64,000 bases of DNA, from the NCBI GenBank assembly GCA_964430705.1, contig CAYSGJ010000178.1, forward strand, positions 2,022 to 66,021. The letters are read 5' to 3'. The notes beneath the pieces were generated by a model. The model did not search any database and was not told where the DNA came from. It worked only from the letters and a program-made list of their open reading frames with translations. Each line of letters starts with the position of its first letter. The first letter of the stretch is position 1. The position numbers and the translations under genes were made by a program. Source of the DNA: an uncultured Desulfobacterales bacterium. GTDB taxonomy: Bacteria > Desulfobacterota > Desulfobacteria > Desulfobacterales > C00003060. Positions 10,916-61,503 of this stretch are shown in pieces.

Positions 10916-10918
10916 TCT

Positions 10919-12064: not shown

Positions 12065-12073
12065 AAAGACCTC

Positions 12074-12841
12074 ATGGGCAGACAACCGATCATAGAAGTC
12101 AGGGATTTGGTGGCCAAGTACGGAGACGATACCATTGTTGATCGTGTCTCTTTCGATGTCTACGAAGGGGAAATATTCGGCATTCTGGGCGGAAGCGGAA
12201 GCGGAAAGAGCACACTGCTAAAGCACCTGATCGGACTCATCCGCCCCCATTCCGGGCGGATTGTTGTTGACGGTGACGACATTTCTGCTTGTAGTGAAAA
12301 AACATACCGAAAAATGCTGAAAAAAATTGGTGTGCTCTATCAAGGCGGCGCCTTGCTGGGTTCCATGACCCTGGCAGAGAATGTGGCCTTGCCCGTCAAA
12401 GAGTATACGGATTTGCCGGAAGACTCGGTGAATACCCTGGTCAAGATCAAGCTGAGTCTGGTAGACCTGAGCGGGTACGAAAACCATCTGCCCTCGGAAC
12501 TCAGCGGGGGAATGAAAAAGAGGGCCGGCCTTGCCAGGGCCATGGCGCTAAACCCCCGGATTCTTTTTTTTGACGAACCTTCTGCAGGTCTCGACCCGGT
12601 GACCTCGGTTGAGTTGGACAACCTGATCATTCATTTAAACAAAAGCCTGGGAACCACGATGGTCATTGTTACCCATGAACTTGAAAGCATTTTCGCCGTG
12701 GCACAACGGGTCATTATGCTGGACAAACGCAGCAGGACAATTATTGCCGAAGGCGATCCCGCGTATTTGCGGGATCACAGCCGAAACCCTTTTGTAAAAA
12801 AGTTTTTCACCCGCAGCGCGGCAATTCCAGAGGAAGGATAA
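12074..12841 (+). CDS. ABC transporter ATP-binding protein (MlaF-like)
   Basis: Walker A GGSGSGKST, signature LSGGMKKR, Walker B ILFFDEP. Confidence 0.9.
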   Translation: MGRQPIIEVRDLVAKYGDDTIVDRVSFDVYEGEIFGILGGSGSGKSTLLKHLIGLIRPHSGRIVVDGDDISACSEKTYRKMLKKIGVLYQGGALLGSMTLAENVALPVKEYTDLPEDSVNTLVKIKLSLVDLSGYENHLPSELSGGMKKRAGLARAMALNPRILFFDEPSAGLDPVTSVELDNLIIHLNKSLGTTMVIVTHELESIFAVAQRVIMLDKRSRTIIAEGDPAYLRDHSRNPFVKKFFTRSAAIPEEG

Positions 12842-12847
12842 TTCGCA

Positions 12848-13843
12848 GTGGCGTCCCGAAAAACCAAATTTACAGTAGGACTTTTTGTAGTCAGCGGGGT
12901 GATCGTTGCTTTGTCCGCCGTCATCTGGCTGGGCATGTCGCGTTTTTTTGCAAAGGGGCAGCACTACGCCACGTACTTCAATGAGTCCGTCCAGGGGCTC
13001 GGCACCGAGTCGCCGGTCAAATACCGCGGGGTTTCCATTGGCCGGGTGGAAACCATCGGCGTGGCCCCCGATTCCAAACTCATCGAGGTGGTCTTCAAGA
13101 CTGACTCTTCCCACGCTCTGGATAAGGATGTCGTGGCCCAGCTGAAATCCGTGGGCATCACCGGAAGTATGTTTGTCGAACTCGACAGAAAACGACCCGG
13201 AGAGGCGGATCGATCCCCTGCTTTGAGTTTTCCCTCAGAATATCCCATTGTGGCCTCAAAACCATCTGAAATCAGCAAACTGGTCAGGGGCCTTGATGAT
13301 GTCCTTGATCAGATTCGATCCCTGGACTTGAAAGGAATTTCCGACAAAATCAAGCTCAACCTGGACGACATCAACCGGGCCATCCACGATGCCGATGTGC
13401 CGGGTCTCTCAAAAAACATGCGGTCTTCGCTGGCCCGCGTGGGTCGCGTATTCGACAATGACCGATGGGACGCAGTCATAGCGGAGGTGGAACAAGCCGG
13501 AGAATCGCTTAATGCCCTGCTCCAAAATGCCAGCCGAGGACTGGGCCGCGTGGAAGGACTCGTCAGCAGAAACGAAGGGGCGGTCGACGCAGCGATTGGA
13601 AATTTCCAAAAGGCCATGGAAACGGCGACCGTATTCCTGGAAAAAGGGACATCCTTGGTCAGTGGCACGGACAAATCCCAAGCCCAGCTTCGGCGCCATA
13701 TGTTGATCGTCGCCCAAAACCTTGAAAAGGCAAGCGAGAATCTGCAACGGCTTATCGACCTGTTGGCCGACCAACCCTCACAACTCGTATTTGGACAGCC
13801 ACCGGAGCCAAGAAGGATCGATCCGGAAGTGGATGAAAGGTAA
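12848..13843 (+). CDS. MCE/MlaD-family substrate-binding protein
   Basis: N-terminal TM anchor followed by an MCE domain (PVKYRGVSIGRVE) and a long helical C-terminus. GTG start. Confidence 0.85.
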   Translation: MASRKTKFTVGLFVVSGVIVALSAVIWLGMSRFFAKGQHYATYFNESVQGLGTESPVKYRGVSIGRVETIGVAPDSKLIEVVFKTDSSHALDKDVVAQLKSVGITGSMFVELDRKRPGEADRSPALSFPSEYPIVASKPSEISKLVRGLDDVLDQIRSLDLKGISDKIKLNLDDINRAIHDADVPGLSKNMRSSLARVGRVFDNDRWDAVIAEVEQAGESLNALLQNASRGLGRVEGLVSRNEGAVDAAIGNFQKAMETATVFLEKGTSLVSGTDKSQAQLRRHMLIVAQNLEKASENLQRLIDLLADQPSQLVFGQPPEPRRIDPEVDER

Positions 13844-17916: not shown

Positions 17917-17947
17917 TCAAAAACAAAACTCCCCGCCCAACGGGGAG
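17917..17947 (-). terminator. rho-independent terminator candidate
   Basis: Minus-strand hairpin CTCCCCG-TTGGG-CGGGGAG followed by a T-rich run (plus-strand A-run 17917-17928). It lies ~200 nt downstream of the receiver gene. Confidence 0.5.
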
Positions 17948-18147
17948 TTACCCGGGGCCACGCCCGGCAAATTATTTCCTAGCCGCAATCACGGCTCGGC
18001 ATTGCACACAGTAAACGAATGGGCGCCGACAAAAAGCCTTCCAGCATCACCCTTGACACAGGACCTGTTTTTCGTCACTTTTCCCTCCGGAAAAGCGGGC
18101 GAAAAGATGACGATACGGCGATCGTGCCCCTTAAAGACCTCCGGAAG

Positions 18148-19268: not shown

Positions 19269-21041
19269 TCACATTAAAAGAAAAACAACTACCAAAAAAA
19301 CAGTGGCTACGGCAGCGCTTATTCCTACCGGTACTGTGCCGGTCTTGAGGGCTGCACGGGTTCTGGTGATTTTTGCCTCAAGGTTTTCGCCTTTGGCGCC
19401 GCCCGCAGTCCACAAAGGGACCATCGTTCCAAGGACAAGCATCTCGGGCATACGCCTTGAGACCCAGCCAAGAAATCGAGGCAGCCCCTTTGCGATGAAT
19501 CGATCCGAGGCCCTGTTGACGGTATTAAACACCCTGTCCACTACCGAGTAAAAGAATCTACCGCCCATTCGGTAGAACCAGTCGGCATCCAGATTGACAC
19601 AGCGCATCTCCGGCGGATAAATCCCCGCCAGCAAAAGCAAGGTAAATGCCAGGGCGGAGAAGAACAGTATTTGCGTCTGGGCCACAACATGAGGCATGGT
19701 ATAAGGTTCATACTCAACAGGATATGGAAGCAGACTATAAAGCGGGCCCGGATTCGACCCAATAAAGATGCACAAAAAGGCGGCGATCCCCATGGCGATG
19801 AGCATGTTCAGCGGAGCCTCCTTGGGCCTCATGCCGGAATCGTGTCCAAAAAAGGCAAAGAAGGGGATCTTGATGCCTGCGTGGTGAAATACGCCGGCTG
19901 AGGCAAATAACAAGATAAACCATACAATCCTAAGATGGCCCTGTCCGGCCGCATCCATAACCATGGACTTGCTCACAAAGCCGCTGAAAAGGGGAAACGC
20001 GGAAATGGATGCGGCGCCTACCATGCAAAATATGCACGTAAGCGGCATGGTCCTGTACAACCCCCCAAGGGCGGTGCCGTTGATTTTTCCCGTTCGGTAC
20101 ATCACGGCGCCCATGGACATGAAAAGCAGCGCCTTAAATAAAATATCGTTAAAGGCATGGCACACTGCGCCATTGATGCCCAGATGGGTGCCTATCCCTA
20201 TGCCGACCACCATAAACCCCACCTGGTTAATCAAACTGTAGGCAAGCACTCTTCTGAGGTCATTCTCAATGACCGCATAGAAGATAGGAAATCCGGTCAT
20301 AATCGCCCCAATCCATATCAGGGCCTCCGTTCCGGGAAAGGCCCTCGCCAGGGCATACACCGCACACTTGGTCGTAAAGGCGCTCAAGAAGATGGTTCCC
20401 GTAATGGTTGCCTCGGGATAGGCGTCGGTCAACCATGGATGCAGCACCGGCCAGGCACAGTTCAAGCCGAAACCGATGAATATGAAGTAGGCCGCAGGCC
20501 CGCTCAATCCGATATAACCGAACTCAATAGAGCCCGTTTGATGTGCCAGCAACACGATGCCCGTGAGCAGACACAGCCCCCCGGCAGCATGAACCAGAAG
20601 ATACCGGAACCCCGCGCCCTGGGCGGCCTTTGTCCTTCGAGCCCAGATAAGAAATATGGATGCTACCGTGAGCATCTCCCAGAAGACGAAGAATGAAAAA
20701 AGATCCCCCGCAAAGACGACCCCCAGCGCTGCTCCCGCATAAATAAGGCCGGCCACATGTTGGACGTCATCTTTCACGTGCAGGGCGTACATAATAGCGA
20801 TAAAGGATATGAGATGAAAGATGTAACCAAAAAGCAGGCTCAGCCTGTCCACTTTTCCAAAAACGATCTCAAAGCCTAAAAACTCGACAACCCAATGCGT
20901 CCCGTGGGGAATATGAATCAAGTTCACAAAACCGACCACCGGGATCAGCAGCATGAACCCACTTTTCCACTTTCCCTTGATGAGGGGAACCAACAACCCT
21001 CCGACAATGAATATCAGGGCCGGCGGAACAATATCAATCAT
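19269..21041 (-). CDS. NuoL/MrpA-N-like antiporter subunit with C-terminal amphipathic extension and terminal TM
   Basis: 590 aa multi-TM proton-antiporter family protein (DRLS motif, conserved K/H-rich TM core). An extra ~100-aa C-terminus ends in the TM segment VPVGISAAVATVFLVVVFLLM. Confidence 0.85.
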   Translation of the reverse strand: MIDIVPPALIFIVGGLLVPLIKGKWKSGFMLLIPVVGFVNLIHIPHGTHWVVEFLGFEIVFGKVDRLSLLFGYIFHLISFIAIMYALHVKDDVQHVAGLIYAGAALGVVFAGDLFSFFVFWEMLTVASIFLIWARRTKAAQGAGFRYLLVHAAGGLCLLTGIVLLAHQTGSIEFGYIGLSGPAAYFIFIGFGLNCAWPVLHPWLTDAYPEATITGTIFLSAFTTKCAVYALARAFPGTEALIWIGAIMTGFPIFYAVIENDLRRVLAYSLINQVGFMVVGIGIGTHLGINGAVCHAFNDILFKALLFMSMGAVMYRTGKINGTALGGLYRTMPLTCIFCMVGAASISAFPLFSGFVSKSMVMDAAGQGHLRIVWFILLFASAGVFHHAGIKIPFFAFFGHDSGMRPKEAPLNMLIAMGIAAFLCIFIGSNPGPLYSLLPYPVEYEPYTMPHVVAQTQILFFSALAFTLLLLAGIYPPEMRCVNLDADWFYRMGGRFFYSVVDRVFNTVNRASDRFIAKGLPRFLGWVSRRMPEMLVLGTMVPLWTAGGAKGENLEAKITRTRAALKTGTVPVGISAAVATVFLVVVFLLM

Positions 21042-21294
21042 AGTAATCCTCTCGTCTCATAACCAGGGGCCGCAGGATGTATTTTGCTACGACAACAAGA
21101 ACCACGCAGGCCACGAATCCGTACACACAATAGAACTCGGGCCACTCTTCCCAGGGAAAATGGGCATGCTTATGAACAAACACTTCTATGATTAAAAGGA
21201 CAACCAACGACGAAAAAAAGATCCCGAGAAGCCTGGTTACATTTTTGGGGTTGTCAAAAAGATATTCTTTTTCGTCTGTAGGTTTTGCGTGCAT
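21034..21294 (-). CDS. small two-TM membrane protein
   Basis: 86 aa with two hydrophobic helices. 8-nt overlap with the downstream antiporter-like gene suggests translational coupling. Confidence 0.45.
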   Translation of the reverse strand: MHAKPTDEKEYLFDNPKNVTRLLGIFFSSLVVLLIIEVFVHKHAHFPWEEWPEFYCVYGFVACVVLVVVAKYILRPLVMRREDYYD

Positions 21295-21317
21295 GTCAAG
21301 TCCTTTCCCCCTAAGAT

Positions 21318-21461
21318 CTAGAGGGTCTTCAAAAGAATCAGGCCAAGATACAAACAGCCGATGGTAATGGCTATGAAAAATACGGCCCTATAGGGCGGAA
21401 CAGGGTCATGGCCAAGCACCATCTTGCCCTCTATCTCATCGCTTCTGTCGTTGCTCATCAT
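21318..21461 (-). CDS. very small single-TM protein (47 aa)
   Basis: Internal ATG begins 3 nt after the upstream gene's stop. C-terminal TM VFFIAITIGCLYLGLILL. The longer ORF version overlaps the upstream CDS. Confidence 0.35.
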   Translation of the reverse strand: MMSNDRSDEIEGKMVLGHDPVPPYRAVFFIAITIGCLYLGLILLKTL

Positions 21462-21463
21462 GC

Positions 21464-22945
21464 TTACGTCCCCGTTATGTTGCTCACGACCATACTGGCC
21501 AATTCGAGAAAAGGTTCCGGATAAAAGAGCATTATCATGGAAATCAGGGCGGTAATCACCAGGGGCACCACGCAAAATACAGGCGCCTCTTTCACCGTGT
21601 TTTCAAACATGGCCTCTTTCGGCGTACAAAAGAAAGCCTTGTAGACAAAAGGCATGAAATAGGCTGCATTGAGCAAAGAGCTGGCGAGCAATACAAATAG
21701 AATAGGCATCTGGTCGGCCTGAAGGGAGCCCAGCACAAGATACCACTTACTCAAAAACCCCCCGCACGGGGGCATGCCGATAATACTCAATGCGGCGATA
21801 AAAAAAGCCGTCAGCGTCACGGGCATTCTCCTGCCGATCCCGACCATCTCGCTGATGTTCTTTTTTCCGGTAGCCACAAAGATTGCACCGGCGCAGAAAA
21901 AGAGCGTGATCTTGCCGAAGGCGTGCATGGCAATGTGCATCATGCCGCCGGTCATGCCTTTGGGCGAAAGCAACCCGACACCCAACACAATGTAGGAAAG
22001 CTGGGCAATGGTGGAAAAAGCAAGGAGTCGCTTCAGGTTGTCCTGAGAAAGGGCAATGAAAGACCCAACCAAAATGGTCACGGATGCCACATAAACGATG
22101 GGAACACCCAGGTTCAGAGAAGACAACAGGTCCGTCCCAAACACCCCGGTCAGAACGCGAACAATACTGAACACCCCCACCTTGACAACAGCCACGGCAT
22201 GCAGCAATGCGCTCACCGGGGTAGGCGCCACCATGGCTGCCGGAAGCCACGAGTGAAACGGCATGATTCCGGCTTTGGCAAACCCAAAAATGAACATGAA
22301 CAAAAGCAGCCCGATCAAGCCCTTAGAAGCCCCGGCTCCGGCTAGAAATCCCTGCTTGCCGAATTCAAGGGTTCCGGTCAAACTGTATGATATCAGCATG
22401 GCCGGCAACAAGAGCCCGATAGAGGTTCCCACAATGTAGAGCAAATATTTTCGCCCCGAGCTTCGCGCTTCATGGTCCTGATGGTGCGTGACCAGAGGAT
22501 ACGTGGCAAAGGAAAGCATCTCATAAAACAGATACAAGGTCAGGAGGTTTCCTGAAAAGGCCACGCCGATGGTGGCGGAAAGAGCAAAGGCAAAGAAACA
22601 AAAATAGCGGGTCTGGCTGTGCTCGTCCAGGCCTCGCATATAGCCTATGGAATAGGCCGAGGTAATAATCCACAAGGATGAGGCTACCAGGGCAAAGATC
22701 ATTCCCAGGGCGTCGACCCGGAACTTGATGGCCACCCCCGGTATAACCTCGGCCACCGTATAGACGATTTCCGTTCCCTGTAAAACGAGCGGTACCATGG
22801 AGGCCACAATGAGGAACTTTGCAACCGCGGCCACAAAGGTCCATGTCTCGCGAACATTGGGGGCCCGGCTGGACACCAGCATGGGGGTGACCAAAAGAGA
22901 TGCCAATACCGCCAACAAAGGCTTAATTGATGTGATCGTTTCCAT
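21464..22945 (-). CDS. MrpD/NuoM/N-family antiporter-like subunit
   Basis: 493 aa with ~14 TM segments and proton-conducting transporter family motifs. Confidence 0.85.
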   Translation of the reverse strand: METITSIKPLLAVLASLLVTPMLVSSRAPNVRETWTFVAAVAKFLIVASMVPLVLQGTEIVYTVAEVIPGVAIKFRVDALGMIFALVASSLWIITSAYSIGYMRGLDEHSQTRYFCFFAFALSATIGVAFSGNLLTLYLFYEMLSFATYPLVTHHQDHEARSSGRKYLLYIVGTSIGLLLPAMLISYSLTGTLEFGKQGFLAGAGASKGLIGLLLFMFIFGFAKAGIMPFHSWLPAAMVAPTPVSALLHAVAVVKVGVFSIVRVLTGVFGTDLLSSLNLGVPIVYVASVTILVGSFIALSQDNLKRLLAFSTIAQLSYIVLGVGLLSPKGMTGGMMHIAMHAFGKITLFFCAGAIFVATGKKNISEMVGIGRRMPVTLTAFFIAALSIIGMPPCGGFLSKWYLVLGSLQADQMPILFVLLASSLLNAAYFMPFVYKAFFCTPKEAMFENTVKEAPVFCVVPLVITALISMIMLFYPEPFLELASMVVSNITGT

Positions 22946-22966
22946 AGATACCCTATTCCATCTTTG

Positions 22967-24475
22967 TCAAACCAGGCCCTTTGGTATAGCGAAATGGACA
23001 ATGTGCTCTACGATGTCGCCGGTATACAAACCAACCACGACCAAGCCCGCAGCCACGATTAACAGCGGAACCAGCATGCTCAGGGGCGCTTCATCCATAG
23101 GCGCGGGGGGTTTAGAATGATGATCATGTCCATGCCCGTGGTGATCGGCAAAAGGTTCGTAGTAACCGATCTCGATGATCCTGAAGAACAAAACCACGCA
23201 AACCAGACTGCTGAAGATCAGGGCAACCATAAAACCGTAATGTCCGGCCTGGATGGCCCCGGTGATCAGATACCATTTACTGAAAAAACCACAGGTGGGA
23301 GGAACCCCGATGATGGACATGGCCGCAAGGACAAAGGCTCCCATGGTAAAAGGCATTTTTCTGAACAACCCCTTGAGGTCCTCAAAGTCTGCACCTTTTG
23401 TTTTATAAACAATACAGCCCACGGCAAGAAACGCACATAGCGTCATGATGGCATCGTTTGCAATGTGGAGGATGGCGCCGGTCATTCCGGCACGGTTTCC
23501 CAGCCAGGCCCCGCCAACCATGTAACCCACTTCTGCGATAATGATATAGGTCAGCATCTTTTTCAGATTTCGCTCTGCCAATGCCATGATGGCGCCTATA
23601 AATATGGCAAGCACGGCAAGCCAGACCACGGCCTCGCTCACCGCAATGGCTTCAAACGCGAACGCCGGGGTGAAGACCGTCAATATCAGGCGGATCATCA
23701 CGTATATCATGACCTTGGTGACGAGGGGGGCGATCAAGCTGCTTGCTGCCGAAGGCGCATAGGTGTAAGCATTGGGCAACCAGGCGTGAAGCGGGAAAAA
23801 CGCCATCTTAAGCCACACGCCCACCATGCAAATGAGAAAAGCCGCGAAAACAGCCTTCGACTGATACAGATCGGGGAGGAGCCTCGCAATATCTGCCATA
23901 TTCAATGAGCCTGTGACGATGTACAGGTATCCCACCCCCAGAAGATAAAAACACGCGCCGATGGTGCCCATGTACAAATAGTTGAGGGTTGCAAGCGCCG
24001 CCCGGTCTTTGTGCCCCATGGCGAGCATGCCGTAGCCGGTTAATGCGGCAACCTCGAGCAACACGTAGAGATTGAAGGCGTCCCCCGTAGCCGAGATACC
24101 CAAAAGGCCGGTGACCATGAGCACATACAGGGTGTAAAAGGATCCCGCTTTTTCTGAAAACTCTTCTTCGATGCTCCTCTTGCCGGCCACAAGATTCACC
24201 AGGGCCACGATGGATACCACGGCCAGCACCAAAGCGTTCAAGTGGTCCACGTAATAGGCGATACCCCACGGGGGAGGCCATCCGCCTAAACGGTAGACGA
24301 TAACCCCATGATCCACGACTTGCCGCAGCAAGCCGATAGAACAGTAGGCGGACACGCTCAGCGCGGCCACCGCAATGGGAAAACACAGCCTTCTATTGGC
24401 CCAGCCGGCAGCACTGATAACAAGGGCCGACAAGAGCGGAACAACAATGAGGAGTGCAGGGTATTGTTGGCTCAT
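22967..24475 (-). CDS. MrpD/NuoM/N-family antiporter-like subunit
   Basis: 502 aa, a paralogue of the previous gene, with a His-rich loop near the C-terminus (DHHGHGHDHH). Confidence 0.85.
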   Translation of the reverse strand: MSQQYPALLIVVPLLSALVISAAGWANRRLCFPIAVAALSVSAYCSIGLLRQVVDHGVIVYRLGGWPPPWGIAYYVDHLNALVLAVVSIVALVNLVAGKRSIEEEFSEKAGSFYTLYVLMVTGLLGISATGDAFNLYVLLEVAALTGYGMLAMGHKDRAALATLNYLYMGTIGACFYLLGVGYLYIVTGSLNMADIARLLPDLYQSKAVFAAFLICMVGVWLKMAFFPLHAWLPNAYTYAPSAASSLIAPLVTKVMIYVMIRLILTVFTPAFAFEAIAVSEAVVWLAVLAIFIGAIMALAERNLKKMLTYIIIAEVGYMVGGAWLGNRAGMTGAILHIANDAIMTLCAFLAVGCIVYKTKGADFEDLKGLFRKMPFTMGAFVLAAMSIIGVPPTCGFFSKWYLITGAIQAGHYGFMVALIFSSLVCVVLFFRIIEIGYYEPFADHHGHGHDHHSKPPAPMDEAPLSMLVPLLIVAAGLVVVGLYTGDIVEHIVHFAIPKGLV

Positions 24476-24879
24476 TTTTTCCTTAATTTGGCTAGGATTT
24501 CGTCTTCTTCCAACGTCCCGAATCGCCTGTAGACCTTAATGGCCAATGCAAGGGCCACCCCCAGAGTGGCCACCCCCACCACGATGGCGGTAAGCATCAA
24601 CACATGGGGCAAGGGATTCATATAGTCCACGGCATGAAAGGCATGAGCAACCGTTCCGTGGGCATCGCCGTGGGCGTGCTCCAGGATAGGAATGGTGGCC
24701 CCTCTTTTTGCGCCGATAGACACATAAAACAAGATGATGGCCGTCTGAAAGATATTGACGCCAATAATCTTTTTTACCAGATTGTTTTTGGCGATAATGG
24801 CCCACAGGCCGATCATCATCAATGTGATGTAGATCCAGTAATTGTACTTGGCAACCACGGCCTGAATGAAATCTTCCAT
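24472..24879 (-). CDS. MrpC/MnhC (NuoK-like) subunit
   Basis: 135 aa with 3 TM segments. 4-nt overlap with the downstream D-like gene. Confidence 0.85.
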   Translation of the reverse strand: MEDFIQAVVAKYNYWIYITLMMIGLWAIIAKNNLVKKIIGVNIFQTAIILFYVSIGAKRGATIPILEHAHGDAHGTVAHAFHAVDYMNPLPHVLMLTAIVVGVATLGVALALAIKVYRRFGTLEEDEILAKLRKK

Positions 24880-24882
24880 AGT

Positions 24883-25707
24883 CTAGAGCCCTTCGTCGTA
24901 TCTGCCCCGCGATGCGACAACGTTGTAAATCCAAATCATGGCGGTCAAGACGGCCACCCCCACCCCGATCTCTACAAGGAGAATGCCGTGAGACCTGGCG
25001 GTTATGGGATCCACATGGAGGATCGATGCCAGGGCGGCGTAGTCGAGAAAGTTGAGCCCCAAAAGCAGACACAAGGCCCCCGTGCCTGCAAAGATGAGAA
25101 CGCCGACCGCACAAAGAACGCCCACGGTTTTTTCCGCTATCCTGCCCACCGCCGTTCTCAAATCATTGGAAATGGCAAAAAGAATAATGCTTGCACCAAA
25201 AATCACCCCTCCCTGAAATCCGCCGCCGGGGCTGTGATGTCCGTGGGCAATCACGTAAAGGGCAAACAGTTGTATGAACGGAACAAGCAATCGACAAATG
25301 GTCTTGATGATCAAATCATGCGGCGTCCAGGAGGCATCGATCCTTTCGAAGTCGTCCGACGAGGGAATCTTGCCCTCTTTCAGTCGGATAGTCACACCGG
25401 TCAGGACGTGACGGTACAGCCTTTCACCCGGATCCTCCCTTAAGGAGACGCGCAACAGGAAAAAGCAGACCACGGCGGCGGAAAAGATCACCGCCGTCTC
25501 GAACATGGTGTCAAATCCCCGATAGTCTCCAAGCACCGCAGTCACAATATTGGGAACGGACGTTTCCTCCAAAGTCTTTTCGATATAGCGTGGGGATAGA
25601 TAGGTACTGGCAGGCGAAGCCGGGTCCGCCCACCCGGGAAAATCAGCGGCGGCATAGACAAGAAGGGCCCCTGTGATAGCCGCTATGATCAAACCTATGA
25701 TTTTCAA
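24883..25707 (-). CDS. MrpB/MnhB-type subunit (MbhE+MbhF-like)
   Basis: TTG start (LKIIGLII...) preceded by AGGAGG and overlapping the upstream stop. MnhB-like motif LGDYRGFDT. Confidence 0.75.
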   Translation of the reverse strand: MKIIGLIIAAITGALLVYAAADFPGWADPASPASTYLSPRYIEKTLEETSVPNIVTAVLGDYRGFDTMFETAVIFSAAVVCFFLLRVSLREDPGERLYRHVLTGVTIRLKEGKIPSSDDFERIDASWTPHDLIIKTICRLLVPFIQLFALYVIAHGHHSPGGGFQGGVIFGASIILFAISNDLRTAVGRIAEKTVGVLCAVGVLIFAGTGALCLLLGLNFLDYAALASILHVDPITARSHGILLVEIGVGVAVLTAMIWIYNVVASRGRYDEGL

Positions 25708-25949
25708 TCTTTGGTCCTCCTTGTGGTACGAAACACCGCGCCGACGAAAAAGACCGTGCTTACGCCCGCTCCCACAGAGGCTTCGGTGAAAGCCACGTCC
25801 ACCGCGCCCATAATAGTCCACAGCAAGCACATCATGAAACTGTAGGCCCCAAACAGGATGGCGGCCCCCAATAAATCCTTGACCATGAGAGCGCCGATGC
25901 CACACACGACGACCAGCGTCAGAATGGCCAAATCGAGCTGCCAGACCAT
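25704..25949 (-). CDS. small MrpA-C-terminal/MbhD-like (DUF4040-type) membrane subunit
   Basis: 81 aa from the internal ATG (MVWQLDLAIL...) preceded by GGAGG. 3 TM segments. Confidence 0.6.
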   Translation of the reverse strand: MVWQLDLAILTLVVVCGIGALMVKDLLGAAILFGAYSFMMCLLWTIMGAVDVAFTEASVGAGVSTVFFVGAVFRTTRRTKD

Positions 25950-25953
25950 GAAA

Positions 25954-26277
25954 CTACCTCCTTTCGTCTCCCTTGACCCAGGGTTCCAGGCCCGCCCGGA
26001 CCCCGGCGTCCACAATGGCATGGGTGGCTGTCGGGCTGGAGAGAAAAACGAAAACCGAAATCATAAGGATCTTAACGCTCGTCAGCAATGCCAAGAGGGA
26101 AAAATGGTGGAGATTAAAAAGGGCCAGGCCCAACAAGGCCAATAACGAGCCTACCGTATCCAGCTTACCGGCCGGATGGAGCCTCGAATAAAAGTCGGGC
26201 ATCCGCAATATCCCGACAGCACCACCGGTAAAGAAAAATAGGCCCCCAACAACCAGCAATACCACGATGATATCCAT
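25954..26277 (-). CDS. MrpG/MnhG subunit
   Basis: MnhG signature GILRMPDFYSRLH..GK. Confidence 0.85.
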   Translation of the reverse strand: MDIIVVLLVVGGLFFFTGGAVGILRMPDFYSRLHPAGKLDTVGSLLALLGLALFNLHHFSLLALLTSVKILMISVFVFLSSPTATHAIVDAGVRAGLEPWVKGDERR

Positions 26278-26332
26278 AGTGTCCTATCTCCTGAATGCGG
26301 CTTTTTCTCGGTGAGCAATAACCGAATCCCAA

Positions 26333-26614
26333 TCACGTACTTTCATCAAACAGCCCTTTGCGCTTCTGAAAATACCTCGACGCCGCCAATACGGCGATGA
26401 AGTTCAGCATGGCATAGGCCAGGGCGATGTCCACGAACATTTCCACCCGTTGGTAGATAAGGCCGATAAGGATGAGCAGTACGGCCGTTTTGCTTCCAAT
26501 GGCATTCACCCCGATCATCCGGTCCACCACCGTCGGCCCGAAGAGGCCTCGATACAACGAAAGAACCATGAGAAAAGCCAAATATAGCCCTGTGTACAAA
26601 AAAAACGTATCCAT
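26333..26614 (-). CDS. MrpF/MnhF subunit
   Basis: 93 aa with 3 TM segments and the motif GPT..DR....A. Confidence 0.85.
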   Translation of the reverse strand: MDTFFLYTGLYLAFLMVLSLYRGLFGPTVVDRMIGVNAIGSKTAVLLILIGLIYQRVEMFVDIALAYAMLNFIAVLAASRYFQKRKGLFDEST

Positions 26615-27186
26615 TAGTCCTCACTAAATGTTCTGGAAACCCTTGCCTCCATTTCGCCGGGCAAAGGATCACCGGAAACCTTATCAATGGCGTGCACCTT
26701 GAAATCACCGTCTACCGTCACATACACCGTAATGGTCCCGGGGGTGAGCGTCATGGAGTTGGCAAAGGTCACCAGGGACAACTCGCTTTTTAATGAGCTT
26801 CGAAATTTGATGATCCTGGGGTCAATCAGGTCCATCATTCTGGGATGAAACACCAGATAGGTCACGTGAAGACTTGCCTTGCCTATCTGGACAAGCAGCC
26901 ACGGCAGGTATAAGACAAAGCGAACCCACTGACCCAAAAGCCCTTTTGGCTTGGCGGGAAACAAAAGGTCGCCGGAAAGATACGCAACGATCGCACAGGA
27001 AATGACCCCGAGGCTCAGATGAAAAGCATCAAACTGTCCCGAAAGCAAAACCCAAACGCCTGCCATGATGATAAAGGTCATGATAAAGGGAAAGAAATGG
27101 AAGGTATTGCGTCGAGCGCTCTTAGAATCCGAACGGTTTTTACCGGAAGTAACGGCGGCCGAATCTTTTCGCATTGCATGACCCAC
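26614..27186 (-). CDS. MrpE/MnhE subunit
   Basis: GTG start 6 nt after GGAGGAGG. MnhE motifs WVLLSG and LTPGTI..V. Confidence 0.8.
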   Translation of the reverse strand: MGHAMRKDSAAVTSGKNRSDSKSARRNTFHFFPFIMTFIIMAGVWVLLSGQFDAFHLSLGVISCAIVAYLSGDLLFPAKPKGLLGQWVRFVLYLPWLLVQIGKASLHVTYLVFHPRMMDLIDPRIIKFRSSLKSELSLVTFANSMTLTPGTITVYVTVDGDFKVHAIDKVSGDPLPGEMEARVSRTFSED

Positions 27187-27265: not shown

Positions 27266-27281
27266 AGCAAGGCATGTGCCA
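27266..27281 (-). promoter_or_regulatory. sigma54 (-24/-12) promoter for the Mrp-like operon
   Basis: The minus strand reads CTTGGCACATGCCTTGCT, an exact match to TGGCAC-N5-TTGCT, ~80 nt upstream of the mrpE-like start. Confidence 0.7.
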
Positions 27282-27367
27282 AGCTGTATACCTCGCATCG
27301 CAGACTCAATAACATATTGGTTTCATAATATTTTACGAGATGTGCCGCGCAAGCGCCCACGAAACAT

Positions 27368-27389
27368 TATCGGCATTTTTTTGCCGATA
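27368..27389. promoter_or_regulatory. perfect palindrome, candidate activator-binding site (UAS)
   Basis: TATCGGCA-TTTTTT-TGCCGATA, ~90-110 nt upstream of the sigma54 promoter, in the divergent intergenic region next to the activator gene. Confidence 0.45.
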
Positions 27390-27531
27390 CATAGGCGCTT
27401 TTAGTAAAATTGACATGTTTTTGCCGGTTTGCTATCCTGTTCGCCATTGCCGGGTCGGATTGCCGAATCTTGTTTGTGATTTTCGATGCCCGGGTGTTTT
27501 ATGGGTCTGGAAAAGCGGAAGGAGTATCTCC

Positions 27532-28614
27532 ATGAGCCCCAATCGTGTTGCTTTGCACGGCCACATCGAGCCGGATTTATTCCCGGAGTTTGTAGTGGTT
27601 AGCCAACACATGCGTGCTGTTATGAAAACGGTGCACCAAGTCGCACGGTTCGACGCCAATGTATTGATCCATGGAGAGTCGGGAACAGGCAAGGAGCTGC
27701 TGGCACGCATCATGCACCAAAAAAGCAATCGCAAGGACAAGCCGTTTGTCCCTGTAAATTGCGGCACCCTGTCGGGGGAGCTTTTTGAAAGCAAGCTTTT
27801 TGGCCATGAAGTCGGAGCTTTTACCGGGGCCACTAGAAAAACCAAGGGCCGTTTTGAACAGGCCAACCATGGAACCTTGTTTCTCGATGAGGTTTCAGAG
27901 GTTTCGCAACGAAACCAGGTCAATTTTCTTCGGGTCTTGGAAGATGGGTGTTTCCGCAGAATCGGGGGTGAGGTTTCCACCAAGGTGGATGTACGCATCA
28001 TTGCGGCCACCAACAAGGACCTTGCCGCAGAGGTACAGGCCCATCGCTTTCGGCAAGATCTCTACTATCGTCTTCAGGTCATCCCCATCAATCTGCTACC
28101 ACTGAGGAAGCGCAGGGAGGCCATTCCGCATCTGGTAGATTATTTTTTGAAACGCTTTTCAACCATTTATCAGAGCCCAAGACTCTCGGTGGAACCGGAA
28201 GCCCTTCGATATCTGGTCTCTTGCGACTGGCCGGGCAATATCAGAGAGCTGAAAAATCTCATGGAAAGATTGGCCTTGACGGTTCGGGGACCGGTGATTT
28301 CCAAAGAAGATTTTCCGGAAGATTTTGTTTTCACGCATTCAGGCGAGGTATCGCGGACGGAGCCTGCAGCGCCGGAAACAGCCACTGCAATGAGCAACCG
28401 TGTCGTCGCCGGCGGCATCGAACCGCTCCGAAAAGCCCGAAAGCGGGTTGAAAAAACGCTGATATTGCGGGCGCTGGAAACCACGGGCGGCCGGAGAGCA
28501 AAGGCGGCGGAACTGCTTGACATAAAAGCCAGAACGTTGCGACAGAAAATGAGCGACTACGGTATCGTGTTCCCGAGAACACGGAAGAAGAAAGGGAAAA
28601 AAACGTCGTTTTAG
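27532..28614 (+). CDS. sigma54-dependent transcriptional activator, AAA+ and Fis-type HTH only (no sensory/receiver domain)
   Basis: ATG at 27532 follows GGAAGGAG. Walker A GESGTGKE, GAFTGA loop, Walker B LFLDE and a C-terminal HTH are present. The AAA+ core begins ~20 aa after the start. Confidence 0.92.
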   Translation: MSPNRVALHGHIEPDLFPEFVVVSQHMRAVMKTVHQVARFDANVLIHGESGTGKELLARIMHQKSNRKDKPFVPVNCGTLSGELFESKLFGHEVGAFTGATRKTKGRFEQANHGTLFLDEVSEVSQRNQVNFLRVLEDGCFRRIGGEVSTKVDVRIIAATNKDLAAEVQAHRFRQDLYYRLQVIPINLLPLRKRREAIPHLVDYFLKRFSTIYQSPRLSVEPEALRYLVSCDWPGNIRELKNLMERLALTVRGPVISKEDFPEDFVFTHSGEVSRTEPAAPETATAMSNRVVAGGIEPLRKARKRVEKTLILRALETTGGRRAKAAELLDIKARTLRQKMSDYGIVFPRTRKKKGKKTSF

Positions 28615-28681
28615 TGCACTGCTGCGCAACGGCTGTCATGGATATGGGCAATAAAAAATGCACCGGCCAGAAGGAGACACG

Positions 28682-29110
28682 ATGAAGCCCCGGCTTTTAC
28701 TCGTGGATGACGAAGAGATGTATGTTGAGTATCTCTCGAAGCGATTGATAAACCGTGGCTACGATGTGACCAAGTGCCTGACCGGAGAGGAAGCACTCAG
28801 GAAAATTCGGGACGGGGATTTTGACGTCATCATCCTTGATGTGCTGTTGCCGGGCATTGACGGCATCGAAACGCTCCGGGAAATCAACAAATACAAACCG
28901 CTTTGCGAAGTGATCATGCTGACCGGTCATGCCTCGTTGGAGTCCGGCATTGAGGGGATGAAATTGGGGGCTTTCGATTATTTGAGAAAACCTTGCGATA
29001 CGGAGGAGTTGGTAGCAAAAATCGACCAAGCCTATCATAAGAAGTTGGACCAAGAAGAACGGATTCGCGACACCAAGCGGCGTTACCAAGGCAAGGAAGG
29101 CAGTCAATAA
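28682..29110 (+). CDS. stand-alone NtrC-type receiver domain protein
   Basis: LLLVDDEE, IILDVLLPGIDG, LTGHAS...GAFDYLRKP. Lies 68 nt downstream of the activator gene. Confidence 0.9.
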   Translation: MKPRLLLVDDEEMYVEYLSKRLINRGYDVTKCLTGEEALRKIRDGDFDVIILDVLLPGIDGIETLREINKYKPLCEVIMLTGHASLESGIEGMKLGAFDYLRKPCDTEELVAKIDQAYHKKLDQEERIRDTKRRYQGKEGSQ

Positions 29111-29157: not shown

Positions 29158-30312
29158 CTAGCCGATGGGTATGCGGATAGTAAACGTGGATCCCGTTCCG
29201 ACGGTACTTTCAAAGGTGATCGCGCCGCCAAGCCGCTGAATAATATTCTGACAGATCGACAGACCCAGGCCTGTGCCCCTGCCGGGAGGCTTGGTGGTAT
29301 AGAAAAGGCGGAACATCTTTTCTTGTGCCTCTTCCGGAATGCCGACGCCGTTGTCTTGAATATCCACCCGGACATCCGGACCCACCTTTTTTGTGCGCAT
29401 CCCAATCTTTCCGTCTTGGTCGCCCTTGTCCAAAACAGCATGAATGGCATTGGTAACGACATTGACAAAAACCTGTTGCAACAATCGGGGATCGGAGTTC
29501 ACCACAAGCGGATCTTCGGCAAGCTGAAAATCCACAGTGATGGGACTATGTTTTAATTCCGGACTGAGCAGATCAACCGTTTCCCGGAGAACCTCGTTGA
29601 CGTCGAATTCCGTTTTTGTCGGGTCGGTTTGCCTTGTAAAGTCAAGTAGTTTATGGGTGATATGGCGACCACGCCTGGTCTGCGCCGCGATTTTGCTCAG
29701 GGTATCTGAAAGTTCTTGGCGGTCCTCCGGGGCCAGCCCCTGCGCGTCGGAAACAACCTCCTGCGCCCATCCGGACGCCTCGCTGATCACAGCCAAAGGA
29801 TTGTTGATTTCGTGGGCCACCCCGGCAGCAATGCGACCGATCTCGGCGAGCCTGTCCACCTGAACCAGATCATCCTGAAGTTTTTTCCATTGGGTGATGT
29901 CGTTGCAAACACCCACGGTACCGACAATCTTGCCCGCCCTGTTGGTTAGGCTCATCAAAGAAGCATGGCAGTGGACCGTATGTCCCTCTTTGTGTCGAAA
30001 GTGGAAGTCCAGCGTCAGGGCGCAGCCATCAACCTGACAACCTTTTATCACGTGTTCAAACGCATTGGGATCTTCAGCGAAATCACTAATAGACCGGCCT
30101 ATGACCTCGCCCAGCGAATAGCCCAGGACCTTCTCAGCCCCGGCGCTGAAAGATATCACAATCCCTGTCACGTCTGTGGCAAAGATCATGTCCGTAGAGT
30201 TCTGTAAAATGCAATGAAGGTAACCCCTGGTTTGATGCAGCTCTATCTTATAGCTTTCCAGCTCTCGGGTTACCTTCTTGAGTTCGGATGCTACAGCATT
30301 ATTCGATTCCAT
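29158..30312 (-). CDS. PAS-domain sensor histidine kinase
   Basis: PAS block (NSTDMIFATDVTGIVISFS), H-box VAHEINNPL, and G-boxes DNGVGI and GRGTGLGLSICQ. The start is trimmed to MESNN. Confidence 0.9.
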   Translation of the reverse strand: MESNNAVASELKKVTRELESYKIELHQTRGYLHCILQNSTDMIFATDVTGIVISFSAGAEKVLGYSLGEVIGRSISDFAEDPNAFEHVIKGCQVDGCALTLDFHFRHKEGHTVHCHASLMSLTNRAGKIVGTVGVCNDITQWKKLQDDLVQVDRLAEIGRIAAGVAHEINNPLAVISEASGWAQEVVSDAQGLAPEDRQELSDTLSKIAAQTRRGRHITHKLLDFTRQTDPTKTEFDVNEVLRETVDLLSPELKHSPITVDFQLAEDPLVVNSDPRLLQQVFVNVVTNAIHAVLDKGDQDGKIGMRTKKVGPDVRVDIQDNGVGIPEEAQEKMFRLFYTTKPPGRGTGLGLSICQNIIQRLGGAITFESTVGTGSTFTIRIPIG

Positions 30313-30793
30313 AGATTTTGCGAAGATCGGCAATGGCTTTTCTGATGCCGTGGGCGCCGAGACCCGAGGCATAAAGCTGTTCCACCTTTTCCTTGAACTC
30401 CTTTTCCTGGATTTCAGTCTTCTTTTTGTAGGCCTTTTTAATGGCTGCGATCAAGTCATCATGCTCCGCCGGCTTCAGAAGATAGGTGAAGGCATCTTCC
30501 TGGCCGCTTTCCAGGGCCGATTCTATAGAGCCATGACCGGTCAACACGATACACTGCAGAAACGGTTGGATGTCCTTGAGTTTCCGTTGGGTTTCCACCC
30601 CGTCAATACCGGGCATTTTCAGATCGACTACGGCCACGTCAAAATGTTGCTCTTTTGCCACCATGACCGCTTCTTCTCCGGAAAAAGCGGCTTTTACCGT
30701 AAAACCTTGCTTCAGAAGTCTCTTTGATAAGTATTCGATCAGGTTTTCCTCATCGTCCACCAGAAGCACTCGAATTGTCTGTTTTTCAGTCAT
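30299..30793 (-). CDS. stand-alone receiver domain protein (paralogue of 28682..29110)
   Basis: VLLVDDEENLIEYLSKRL, VVDLKMPGIDG, LTGHGS. 14-nt overlap with the kinase gene. Confidence 0.88.
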   Translation of the reverse strand: MTEKQTIRVLLVDDEENLIEYLSKRLLKQGFTVKAAFSGEEAVMVAKEQHFDVAVVDLKMPGIDGVETQRKLKDIQPFLQCIVLTGHGSIESALESGQEDAFTYLLKPAEHDDLIAAIKKAYKKKTEIQEKEFKEKVEQLYASGLGAHGIRKAIADLRKIYGIE

Positions 30794-32062: not shown

Positions 32063-34147
32063 TCAATCGGGCGGCAGCGGCGGTCCGGCGATGGCAAACC
32101 TCAAACGGCATCGCAGGCATCGGTTCGCCTCACCCAGGGCGGTCTTATCATCAAAGGACTTTTCCACCTCCGGAAAACCCGGTTTGAAACGGTCCTTGAC
32201 CGGAATGACCGGCGTTTTCACCCGGCTCATGCGGCCGAACCCTTGGATGACTCCCAGGCGCGGGTCGGGTCCTTCCCGTTCATACAAACGTTGCGTGATG
32301 TCGCCGTCGCCTCCCAGATATTTGTCAATGGCTACGGCTGCCCTCCTTCCCGCCTCGATAGCCTGAATAACAGTAGCCGGCCCGGAAACCACGTCGCCGC
32401 CGGCGAAAACTCCTTCTCGGGAAGACGCCAGGGTATTTTCATCTGCGGCAATACGCCCTCCCCTGTCCAGGTCCACCGAAAAGCCTTGAGGCACCTCGGA
32501 ACGTTGCCCGATGGATACGATGAGCCGGTCCACGGCCATCACGAACTCAGAACCCGGCATGGGCTCCGGTCGCCGTCGTCCGCTGTCGTCCGGCTCACCC
32601 AGGACCATCCGAATACACCTGACCGAAAGTCCCGCTTCACCCTTCATAACTTTTACAGGCGCAACAAGAAACTGGAAATCCACGCCTTCTTCCAGGGCGC
32701 CTTCAATTTCCTCCGGCATGGCGGGCATTTCCTCCCGGCTCCGGCGATAGAGTATATGGGCCTTTTCAACGCCCAGCCGCAAGGCAACCCGGGCCGCATC
32801 GATCGCCACATTGCCCCCTCCGACGACCGCAACAATCTTTCCCAGGTCCACGGGTCGGCCGAAATTGACCGCCTTGAGCAGGGAAATTCCTTCCAGAACC
32901 CGTGAATCGTCCTCGCCCGGAATGCCCATCTTGATCCCCGCGCAAGCCCCCACGGCCATAAACACGGCATCCGCACCCGCCTCAAAAAGGACATCCACCG
33001 ATTCCACCGCAGAGTTGGTCTTGATCACCACCCCGAGGTCCTCGATGATCTTGATCTCGCTTTCCAGCGCGTCTTCAGGCAGCCGGTACCGGGGAATGCC
33101 TCCGCGCATCATCCCGCCCGGCTTTTCCCACGCCTCGTAGACCGTCACATCATGTCCCTTCAGGCGCAGAAAATACGCCGCGGTCAGGCCCGCCGGACCT
33201 GATCCGACGACGGCCACCTTTTTGCCGGTGGCCGGGGCTACCTTGAGTCGTTCCCGCCACTTGCCGTCATCCCGATCGGCCACGAAGCGTTTCAGTTGGC
33301 GAATACAGATCGCCTCGTCGATGCCGCCTCTACGACAAACCGTTTCGCACGGGTGGGGGCAGACGCACCCCAGGGTAAGCGGAAAGGGAACCGTCTCTCT
33401 GATCACCGCAAGGGCATCGGCGTATCTTTTTTGGGCAATAAGGCCCACATAGGCGGCCACATCGATATGCGCCGGACATTCGGCACCGCAAGGGATCAGC
33501 CGGTCTTCTCGTTCCTCCTGTGAAAAGGACACCTTGTCCCGCAGGGCGCCGGTGGGACAAACCTCCACACAGGCCCCGCAAAAACGACAGTCCGTGTCCC
33601 GCATGGGCGCGTCGTAGCACGACGTCACACGACTCATCATCCCCCGGTCCACCACCCCGATGGCCCCCACGCCCCGGATCTCCTTGCATGCCCGGTAACA
33701 GCGCCCACAGAGAATACACAGGTTGGGGTCCCGAATAAAAAGCGGATCGTCTTCGGCCACGGGGAGGTTTTTCGGCTCACAGGTGAACCCGGGCAACAGG
33801 TCGCTGACGCCGATATAATCAACCACCTTTCTGAACTGGGTGTTTTTGTCCACCCGATCGGCGGGACATTCGGAAACAAGCAGCCAGACGATGTTCTTCC
33901 TCAACTCCTGGAGCGTTTTGGTGTTTGTTCGCACTACCATGCCGTCCTGAACAGCCGTGGTGCATGAAACCGGAAGCCCGCGCATGCCCTCAATTTCGAC
34001 AATGCAAAGCCGGCAGGCGCCGGTGGGGTTCAAGTCCGGATGGTAACACAGGTTCGGAATATAGATGCCGTTTTCCAGGGCGGCTTCGAGAACCGTGGCG
34101 TCATTCCTGACCTCCAGGTCTTTGCCGTCGATGTTGATCCTAGCCAT
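32063..34147 (-). CDS. Fe-S / GltD-like NAD(P)H oxidoreductase fusion (StnC-like)
   Basis: NuoG/HydA-type N-terminus (2Fe-2S: CYHPDL..GACRLC; 4Fe-4S: CILCGRCYRAC, CRFCGACVEVCP). This is followed by a glutamate-synthase small-subunit-like part with two dinucleotide sites (VVGSGPAGL, VVGGGNVAID). Confidence 0.85.
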   Translation of the reverse strand: MARINIDGKDLEVRNDATVLEAALENGIYIPNLCYHPDLNPTGACRLCIVEIEGMRGLPVSCTTAVQDGMVVRTNTKTLQELRKNIVWLLVSECPADRVDKNTQFRKVVDYIGVSDLLPGFTCEPKNLPVAEDDPLFIRDPNLCILCGRCYRACKEIRGVGAIGVVDRGMMSRVTSCYDAPMRDTDCRFCGACVEVCPTGALRDKVSFSQEEREDRLIPCGAECPAHIDVAAYVGLIAQKRYADALAVIRETVPFPLTLGCVCPHPCETVCRRGGIDEAICIRQLKRFVADRDDGKWRERLKVAPATGKKVAVVGSGPAGLTAAYFLRLKGHDVTVYEAWEKPGGMMRGGIPRYRLPEDALESEIKIIEDLGVVIKTNSAVESVDVLFEAGADAVFMAVGACAGIKMGIPGEDDSRVLEGISLLKAVNFGRPVDLGKIVAVVGGGNVAIDAARVALRLGVEKAHILYRRSREEMPAMPEEIEGALEEGVDFQFLVAPVKVMKGEAGLSVRCIRMVLGEPDDSGRRRPEPMPGSEFVMAVDRLIVSIGQRSEVPQGFSVDLDRGGRIAADENTLASSREGVFAGGDVVSGPATVIQAIEAGRRAAVAIDKYLGGDGDITQRLYEREGPDPRLGVIQGFGRMSRVKTPVIPVKDRFKPGFPEVEKSFDDKTALGEANRCLRCRLRFAIAGPPLPPD

Positions 34148-34156
34148 GAGGTCGCC

Positions 34157-61490: not shown

Positions 61491-61503
61491 GTATCTCCTG
61501 CTC

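Follow-up and report, generated by a model that had tools for sequence, protein, structure and literature searches.

We describe here an operon at positions 19269-27186 of a stretch of 64,000 nucleotides (hereafter the window) from an uncultured Desulfobacterales bacterium (contig CAYSGJ010000178.1). Judging from its gene content, this sigma-54-regulated operon probably encodes a stand-alone secondary cation/proton antiporter of the archaeal-type group 3 Mrp (CPA3) kind, composed of eleven membrane subunits. Three of them are antiporter-like proteins, termed D1, D2 and D3, and two are small proteins, termed s47 and s86, whose genes lie between those of D2 and D3.

Open reading frames (ORFs) were assigned with Pfam and NCBIfam profiles, and the start codons were refined by reading the DNA. 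An earlier note on this DNA had placed the series E-F-G-MbhD-MbhE/MrpB-C, followed by antiporter-like genes, on the minus strand, and the profiles confirm it at the same coordinates. There, 11 tightly packed ORFs are transcribed in the order mrpE, mrpF, mrpG, MbhD-like gene, MbhE+MnhB fusion, mrpC, D1, D2, s47, s86 and D3 (Table 1). Most genes nearly abut. For example, the stop of mrpE overlaps the start of mrpF, the fusion starts at a TTG (25707) that overlaps the stop of the MbhD-like gene, s47 begins 3 nt past the D2 stop, and the s86 stop overlaps the D3 ATG. Sequences resembling ribosome-binding sites (RBS) precede several genes, such as the GGAGG before the ATG of the MbhD-like gene at 25949, where one relative has an 81-aa gene call as well. 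Such stop/start overlaps, together with the RBS-like sequences, are typical of one operon. The matches to Pfam MNHE, MrpF_PhaF, PhaG_MnhG_YufB, MnhB and Oxidored_q2 all exceed the gathering scores, and all seven Mrp functions are recognised by Pfam, NCBIfam and sequence matches in the PDB. That is, homologues of MrpB, C, E, F and G and at least one MrpA/MrpD-type subunit, the gene content of an Mrp/CPA3 system, occur in one operon.

Table 1. Genes and sequence elements of the operon and its surroundings in the window (aa, amino acids; TM, transmembrane helix).
Feature	Position	Strand	Evidence and remarks
mrpE, 190 aa, GTG start	26614-27186	minus	Pfam MNHE, E 9.7e-31; RBS-like AAGGAGGAGG upstream
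mrpF, 93 aa	26333-26614	minus	Pfam MrpF_PhaF, E 1.4e-14
mrpG, 107 aa	25954-26277	minus	Pfam PhaG_MnhG_YufB, E 1.5e-22; TIGR01300 73.6 bits vs cutoff 63.1
MbhD-like small subunit, 81 aa	25704-25949	minus	Pfam MbhD (PF13244), E 3.8e-19
MbhE-like + MnhB (MrpB) fusion, 274 aa	24883-25707	minus	Pfam MbhE (PF20501) + MnhB (PF04039)
mrpC, NuoK-like, 135 aa, His-rich loop	24472-24879	minus	Pfam Oxidored_q2, E 7e-20; NF005624 112 bits vs cutoff 95
D1, 502 aa, MrpD/NuoN/MbsH-type	22967-24475	minus	Proton_antipo_M; PDB sequence matches
D2, 493 aa, MrpA-N/NuoL/MbhH-type, without lateral helix	21464-22945	minus	Proton_antipo_M; NF006236
s47, 47 aa, one predicted TM	21318-21461	minus	conserved ORF between D2 and D3
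s86, 86 aa, two predicted TMs	21034-21294	minus	conserved ORF between D2 and D3
D3, 590 aa, distinct NuoL/MrpA-N/MbsH'-like type	19269-21041	minus	Proton_antipo_M; NF009310; AlphaFold2; Foldseek
Sigma-54 (-24/-12) promoter, TGGCACATGCCTTGCT	27266-27281	minus	about 80 nt upstream of mrpE start
Sigma-54-dependent activator, 424 aa, divergent	27340-28614	plus	Pfam Sigma54_activat, E 3e-68; HTH_8
Receiver protein	28658-29110	plus	Pfam
PAS histidine kinase	29158-30372	minus	Pfam
cNMP_binding-only protein, 160 aa	18698-19180	minus	Pfam; directly downstream of D3
Receiver-only response regulator, 143 aa	18148-18579	minus	Pfam Response_reg
Terminator-like hairpin, 10 pairs + T-run	17927-17949		after response regulator gene
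NuoE-like (163 aa), NuoF-like (584 aa, extra 2x[4Fe-4S] domain), 694-aa fusion	32063-36403	minus	three-gene unit

In group 1 and group 2 systems, with the order mrpA(B)CDEFG, MrpA has about 800-980 residues and carries an MrpB-like C-terminal domain. Here, the longest antiporter-like protein has 590 residues and lacks such a domain. Among the PDB sequence matches of the fusion, MbhE and MrpA (residues 763-817) cover its residues 35-92, while MbhF, MrpB and the C-terminal half of MbsE cover residues 130-259. MbsE is matched over two stretches, and by these alignments the fusion has the same architecture as MbsE. The MbhD-like protein is, as far as its sequence tells, the counterpart of the first part of the MrpA C-terminal domain. 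With this separate gene and the fusion, the MrpA C-terminal domain and MrpB are accounted for, and the splitting of MrpA that had been suspected is borne out.

As defined in the literature, group 3 Mrp includes operons that lack mrpA, have an irregular gene order and carry several mrpD copies (PMC5703873, PMC8415708). The operon in the window, E-F-G-B-B'-C-D-D-x-x-D without full-length mrpA, has these features (Ito 2017; Haja 2021). In addition, genome papers list 'MrpEFGBBCDD' for a Solemya symbiont and 'MrpEFGBBBCD, MrpDD' for NPL-UPA2, mrpFGBCDDAE has been listed for Microbacterium (PMC5703873), and the databases already name these proteins Na+/H+ antiporter subunits. Therefore, the cluster belongs to an already known kind, and the 'unusual composition' ascribed to it earlier was overstated: besides the group 3 definition and the 'MrpEFGBBCDD' precedent, D3 scores above the cutoff of NF009310 and has relatives in 415 stretches of a one-genome-per-species collection.

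The earlier note was right that the order is of the archaeal or MBH type, not the bacterial mrpABCDEFG, since it matches both a haloarchaeal plasmid cluster, described below, and mrpEFGBB'CD of Pyrococcus furiosus. The latter encodes a stand-alone Mrp, known from deletion studies, which is said to lack the module for proton-motive-force input (MrpA TM1-16) (PMC8415708). The first seven genes of the operon have the same order as those of the P. furiosus system (Pf1147-53), namely E, F, G, two MrpB-domain proteins, C and D, and neither cluster has a full-length mrpA or an attached redox module. However, P. furiosus Mrp has a single antiporter-like subunit, whereas the operon in the window adds D2, two small proteins and D3 with its lateral helix. 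Moreover, the host of the latter is bacterial, its relatives are mostly Desulfobacterota, and a sigma-54 promoter is present.

The three antiporter-like subunits were classified by bit scores against solved chains and by a small reciprocal BLAST matrix, which comprised NuoL, NuoM and NuoN of E. coli, MrpA and MrpD of Streptomyces and the haloarchaeal trio. The best PDB matches of D1 are MbsH (199 bits) and MrpD (182 and 180 bits), with MrpA at only about 70-80 bits. Against NF009305, its best model, D1 reaches 380 bits with a cutoff of 700, and it attains no curated equivalog cutoff. D2 finds its best PDB matches in MbhH, NuoL, NdhF and MrpA, and scores 683.4 bits against a cutoff of 663 for NF006236 (PRK08375.1-1, 'putative monovalent cation/H+ antiporter subunit D'). 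As for D3, the PDB sequence matches are MbhH, MbsH', MrpA and ND5, the alignments to ND5 extending to residue 538. It scores 753.7 bits against a cutoff of 564 for NF009310 (PRK12668, 'Na(+)/H(+) antiporter subunit D'), which covers D3 residues 1-588 with profile positions 3-583 of 584.

The key residues distinguish the three subunits further. Alignments of 64-79 orthologues show that D1 and D2 retain the canonical Glu of TM5 and Lys of TM7 and TM12, as well as the Lys/His of TM8. For D1, 63-64 of 64 orthologues share E141, K223, K254 and K400. The conserved residues of D2 are E142, K224, H249/K255, H337/H341/K345 and K400, including the TM11 H-x3-H-x3-K motif of the NuoL/MrpA type. Consequently, of the two MrpD-like genes noted earlier, D1 is indeed of the MrpD type, but D2 is nearer to MrpA-N, NuoL and MbhH. 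Likewise, there are three antiporter-like subunits as claimed, but they are not equivalents of NuoL, NuoM and NuoN: NuoM has a TM12 Glu, while D1, D2 and D3 all keep a TM12 Lys, and D2 is not NuoM-like. The name 'subunit D' thus covers three non-equivalent proteins, which is relevant to genome annotation, and we found no description of this non-equivalence in the searchable literature.

The position of the TM7 Lys is occupied in D3 by Asn194, which is invariant in 79 of 79 orthologues. In the cross-family alignment, this column is Lys in NuoL, NuoM and NuoN of E. coli, in MrpA and MrpD of Streptomyces, and in D1 and D2, while the haloarchaeal D3 orthologue also has Asn. E122, K225, H295, K303 and K358 of D3 are invariant in all the 79 orthologues as well. 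With Asn194 amid otherwise intact proton-path residues, D3 may be a normal pump, may receive its protons laterally from D2, or may have a mainly structural role. In the last case, the complex would be a functionally two-pump Mrp, in which D3 and the small proteins form a structural clamp or cap with the lateral helix and translocate no protons. The Asn shared by the bacterial and haloarchaeal orthologues fits such a role, as does the absence of a lateral helix from D2, which means that another subunit must provide one. However, the five invariant residues are hard to explain in a purely structural protein, and we consider this alternative unlikely. A D3 type that lacks the TM7 Lys and has a long helix was not found described in the searchable literature.

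The C-terminus of D3 was examined in an AlphaFold2 monomer model built from 84 sequences (mean predicted local distance difference test score, pLDDT, 84; predicted template modelling score, pTM, 0.77). In the model, a continuous helix of 60 residues (487-546) is followed by a short helix (552-566) and a terminal hydrophobic TM (572-589). The mean 18-residue hydrophobic moment over 487-546 is 0.52, compared with 0.25 +/- 0.06 for shuffled sequences, and none of 1000 shuffles reaches 0.52; by this sequence measure, the helix is strongly amphipathic. Both results agree with the lateral amphipathic helix plus terminal TM that had been proposed for the 590-aa protein. Foldseek with the D3 model ranks MrpA (7qru_A, 6z16_A) and NuoL/NdhF chains on top, with 620-670 aligned columns. 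Sixty helical residues amount to about 90 A, and the modelled helix would lie along D2 and D1.

The two ORFs between D2 and D3 are, to judge from their conservation, real genes, since homologues occur in 73 (s47) and 77 (s86) of 80 related loci. The s47 homologues, which lie between D2 and D3, share the motif MEL-H-EPVPGYR...FFIAITIG-LYLG, and from the DNA the true length of s47 is 47 aa, not 85 aa. Neither protein has a Pfam or NCBIfam match. As many as 367 protein clusters match s86; those with a name are nearly all 'hypothetical protein', and none has a Pfam domain. Although no description of two small conserved subunits was found in the searchable literature, such 47-aa and 86-aa 'hypothetical proteins' can now be assigned to an Mrp operon, which is useful for genome annotation.

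The related loci were obtained by searching peptide patterns from D3 in a one-genome-per-species collection, in which 415 stretches have a relative of D3; 80 loci were kept. Nearly all of the kept loci are from Desulfobacterota, including SEEP-SRB2 metagenome-assembled genomes (MAGs), Desulfatiglandales and strain NaphS2, and the rest comprise a few Nitrospirota, one Leptospirales MAG and other MAGs. The order E-F-G-(MbhD)-B-C-D1-D2-(s47)-s86-D3 is present in every sufficiently long related locus. A second search, seeded with a Nitrospirales orthologue, found the D3 family also in marine anammox bacteria (Scalindua, Anammoxibacter) and in MAGs labelled Acidobacteriota and Actinobacteria.

We also found a related cluster on a plasmid of the haloarchaeon Halomicrococcus gelatinilyticus (NZ_CP100467.1, 185009-200361; locus L085), with E-F-DUF4040-MnhB-C followed by three antiporter-like genes. 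By reciprocal best match, these three pair one to one with D1, D2 and D3, and their order is the same too. Based on these orthologues and the Asn at TM7, the three-pump layout and the D3 type are common to Bacteria and Archaea. The plasmid order E-F-DUF4040-MnhB-C-D-D-D is like that in the window, but no G gene is annotated and no small ORFs separate the second and third pump genes, so that s47 and s86 have been seen in the bacterial version only. Furthermore, MbhD and MbhE are fused as DUF4040 on the plasmid with MnhB separate, whereas in the window it is MnhB that is joined to MbhE, and MbhD stands by itself. Genes for a soluble hypothetical protein (138 aa) and an Lrp/AsnC regulator come after the haloarchaeal cluster.

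Some related loci have additional copies. For example, a second D2-s47-s86-D3 block (493, 43, 80 and 589 aa) is located a few kb downstream of the full operon at L005 (16837-21348), flanked by receiver-domain proteins and without adjoining E, F, G, B or C genes. This lone copy suggests that D2-s47-s86-D3 is a transferable module of four genes. At L055 (11772-13274) and L053 (11777-13276), a fourth antiporter-like gene (about 500 aa, 27-30% identity to D2) directly follows D3. In these two loci D1 and D2 have about 45-50% identity, compared with 82% for D3, which hints at shuffling of modules. Another Mrp-like cluster, diverged to 40-60% identity with E, F, G, MbhD, C and D1, lies on the opposite strand a few kb away at L042 (10770-18000), L041 (14744-17582) and L053 (18216-21545), and that of L042 has a D3-like gene (51% identity) placed before E.

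Then, could the operon encode the membrane arm of a redox-driven ion pump, to which an input module encoded elsewhere (hydrogenase-like, NuoB/D-like, formate dehydrogenase or NuoE/F-GltD-like) docks? The gene order equals that of the MBH/MBS membrane arm, MbsH and MbsH' are among the best solved relatives of D1 and D3, and NuoE-, NuoF- and HoxU/GltD-like genes lie about 5 kb upstream on the same strand (NuoE/F-like at 34157-36403). In the 694-aa fusion of this unit, an N-terminal Fe-S domain of the HoxU/NuoG/HydA type precedes a GltD/NfnB-like NAD(P)H flavoprotein, and the domain content of the unit suggests a soluble oxidoreductase that is linked to NADH and possibly bifurcating. The unit was considered as the missing redox module and rejected: tblastn found no homologue of the NuoE-, NuoF- and GltD-like genes within 10 kb of the cluster in the 80 related loci. 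Among the ORFs scanned across the window, there is no NuoB, C, D, H or I, no [NiFe] hydrogenase and no formate dehydrogenase; the other large ORFs scanned have housekeeping functions or encode transporters and a 2-oxoacid:ferredoxin oxidoreductase. MBH, MBS and MBX combine a module like NuoB/C/D/I with a NuoH-like anchor (MbhJKLMN), neither of which is present among the scanned ORFs. Complex I has NuoA, H and J and NuoB-I beside NuoL, M and N, and here only the NuoE/F-like proteins occur, in a separate unit. Thus, the absence of redox genes from the window held, among the scanned ORFs, for hydrogenase and formate dehydrogenase, but NuoE/F-like genes are present, though they are not conserved neighbours.

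The flanks of related loci were surveyed with one Pfam search of 148 flanking ORFs from 22 diverse loci. The recurrent families are Response_reg, HATPase_c, PAS, HisKA and Sigma54_activat, that is, mainly two-component, PAS and sigma-54 proteins, and the remainder are housekeeping. No family of complex I, hydrogenase or formate dehydrogenase is among the top 25 Pfam families of these ORFs. The earlier note had reckoned with a redox module beside syntenic clusters in other genomes, and none appears among the recurrent flank families. In addition, D2 and D3 provide the MrpA-N-type module said to be lacking in P. furiosus Mrp. A redox-driven arm is therefore very unlikely in our view. Since no NuoH-like anchor or NuoB/D-like module was found, a stand-alone secondary antiporter is best supported, and of the two possibilities left by the earlier note, the membrane arm for a partner is the less favoured.

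Several points weigh against the reading as a stand-alone antiporter with three proton paths. The survey of flanks lists families present in at least three ORFs, so a rare partner in single genomes would escape it, as would a partner encoded in the genome outside the 64-kb window. The confidence of the D3 model in the helix region is moderate (pLDDT 65-80). Finally, D3 is without the TM7 Lys that is present in all the other antiporter-like subunits compared. This Lys is reported to be essential in MrpA, and D3 may consequently not be a normal proton path.

Compared with the solved group 1/2 Mrp complexes (mrpABCDEFG; 6z16, 7qru, 7d3u), every subunit function also occurs in the operon: D1 corresponds to MrpD, D2 and D3 to the MrpA N-terminal domain, and MbhD plus MbhE to the MrpA C-terminal domain, MrpA being the closest structural match of D3 in Foldseek. 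The differences are the gene order, the splitting of MrpA into three or four genes, two extra small subunits, three antiporter-like subunits instead of two, and a terminal pump without the TM7 Lys. With MBS and MBH (6u8y, 6cfw), the operon shares the gene order of the membrane arm; MbsE resembles the fusion of MbhE and MrpB, D1 resembles MbsH and D3 resembles MbsH' of MBS. Complex I likewise has three antiporter-like subunits, of which the distal one bears a long lateral helix. However, the operon lacks NuoH/MbhM, the quinone-side subunits of the NuoA/J type and the peripheral arm of these complexes. According to one review (PMC8165549), the lateral helix extends over a single subunit in MBH and over two in MBS and Mrp, and complex I is the only case with three; another describes complex I as Mrp with 'one additional MrpD-like subunit' (PMC7419157).

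The solved structures of Mrp, MBH and MBS serve as homologous models for a proposed assembly and mechanism, in which the arrangement of subunits, the ion specificity, direction and stoichiometry of transport, and proton conduction by D3 are all reasoned by analogy. MrpE, MrpF and MrpG with the MnhB domain would form the cation module, probably for Na+, and the MbhD-like protein, the MbhE-like half of the fusion and MrpC a connecting module that corresponds to the MrpA C-terminal domain plus the NuoK counterpart. D1 (MrpD-type), D2 (MrpA-N/NuoL-type) and the distal D3 would then line up as a row of antiporter-like subunits with proton paths. The amphipathic helix of D3, about 90 A long, and its C-terminal TM may run back over D2 and D1, clamping the row as in NuoL, with s47 and s86 as putative accessory subunits at the D2-D3 end. 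In other words, the D2-s47-s86-D3 block would supply MrpA-N/NuoL-type subunits and a lateral helix to a core like that of P. furiosus. Proton-motive force would drive protons through the antiporter-like subunits, the central polar axis would relay the charge changes to the cation site, and expulsion of Na+ (or K+) would follow. A third proton path could raise the H+/cation ratio, with which energy-limited anaerobes could export Na+ or take up H+ when the membrane potential is low.

A bolder proposal, which is tentative and as a whole rather doubtful, is that of a free-standing, complex-I-like three-pump arm: it would have three active proton paths, a clamp by the distal helix, two new small subunits, a terminal pump type with Lys changed to Asn that is common to bacteria and haloarchaea, and an H+/Na+ ratio above that of two-pump Mrp. 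If true, it would be a natural experiment on how the number of antiporter-like subunits sets the stoichiometry, and a parallel to, or relic of, the stage at which complex I acquired its third pump. So far, structural and mechanistic work on Mrp has dealt with the two-pump group 1/2 systems, and the sole genetically studied stand-alone system of group 3 has one pump. We found no biochemical or structural work on a three-pump Mrp in the searchable literature, and papers on Desulfatiglans mention 'MRP' only for unrelated ATPases. The operon is common in sulfate reducers, in the SEEP-SRB2 bacteria that are partners of anaerobic methanotrophic archaea (ANME), and in Nitrospirota. Although not surprising to a specialist, such a convenient and widespread natural three-pump Mrp would make the link between pump number and stoichiometry testable.

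In one related lineage (L081, 1134-3663; L082, 1741-3632), a transporter of the DASS family (Na_sulph_symp/CitMHS) and a fusion of a response regulator with an LCIB-type carbonic-anhydrase-like protein are located directly upstream of mrpE. This neighbourhood would suit another ion-coupled vectorial process, such as CO2/bicarbonate handling (as in cyanobacterial NDH-1MS, or DAB-like). Another alternative is transport of a different cation, K+ or Ca2+, which some Mrp systems carry (PMC5703873). But the carbonic-anhydrase-like gene is absent from the window and not among the recurrent flank families, and no protein of the operon resembles a CO2-hydration subunit. Either function is most improbable.

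As for the regulation of the putative antiporter, TGGCACATGCCTTGCT is a perfect sigma-54 promoter and the sole match to TGGCAC-N5-TTGCW in the window, where 0.06 matches are expected. Of 44 related loci, nine have the same element before mrpE, and eight of these nine have a homologue of the adjacent sigma-54 activator. Homologues of the two-component pair are found upstream of mrpE in most loci with adequate flank, and the upstream region of the window also holds a CBS protein. Downstream, the cNMP-binding and receiver genes are conserved neighbours in most Desulfobacterota loci. In about 60 of 80 loci the former lies directly 3' of D3 and has the same orientation, but it is absent from the Nitrospirota loci, while the latter recurs on the same strand in many loci. 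The cNMP-binding gene may be on the same transcript as the operon, and its product may regulate the antiporter. Scans for sigma-70 promoters and terminators in the window gave no more than shuffled sequences would, and only the hairpin after the response regulator gene (Table 1) is convincing. Taken together, the neighbouring regulators and the sigma-54 promoter suggest that expression responds to the environment.

A few minor features should also be noted. MrpC and D1 have His-rich loops, EHAHGDAHGTVAHAFH in the former (24472-24879) and ADHHGHGHDHH near the C-terminus of the latter (22967-24475), which are semi-conserved in orthologues as EHGHG...H and HGH..H, and could be pH- or metal-sensing elements. 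Far from the operon and unrelated to it, two genes at 60888-63393 (minus strand) encode a 2-oxoacid:ferredoxin oxidoreductase (POR_N/TPP_enzyme_C and POR gamma-like), by its domains of the indolepyruvate-oxidoreductase type. At 7046-8731 and 9626-13843 (plus strand), a DUF6178 protein (full-length, E 3e-151) is followed by a protein with cNMP-binding and PAS domains and by an ABC system of the Mla-like kind, in which the MlaE permease has an N-terminal STAS domain.

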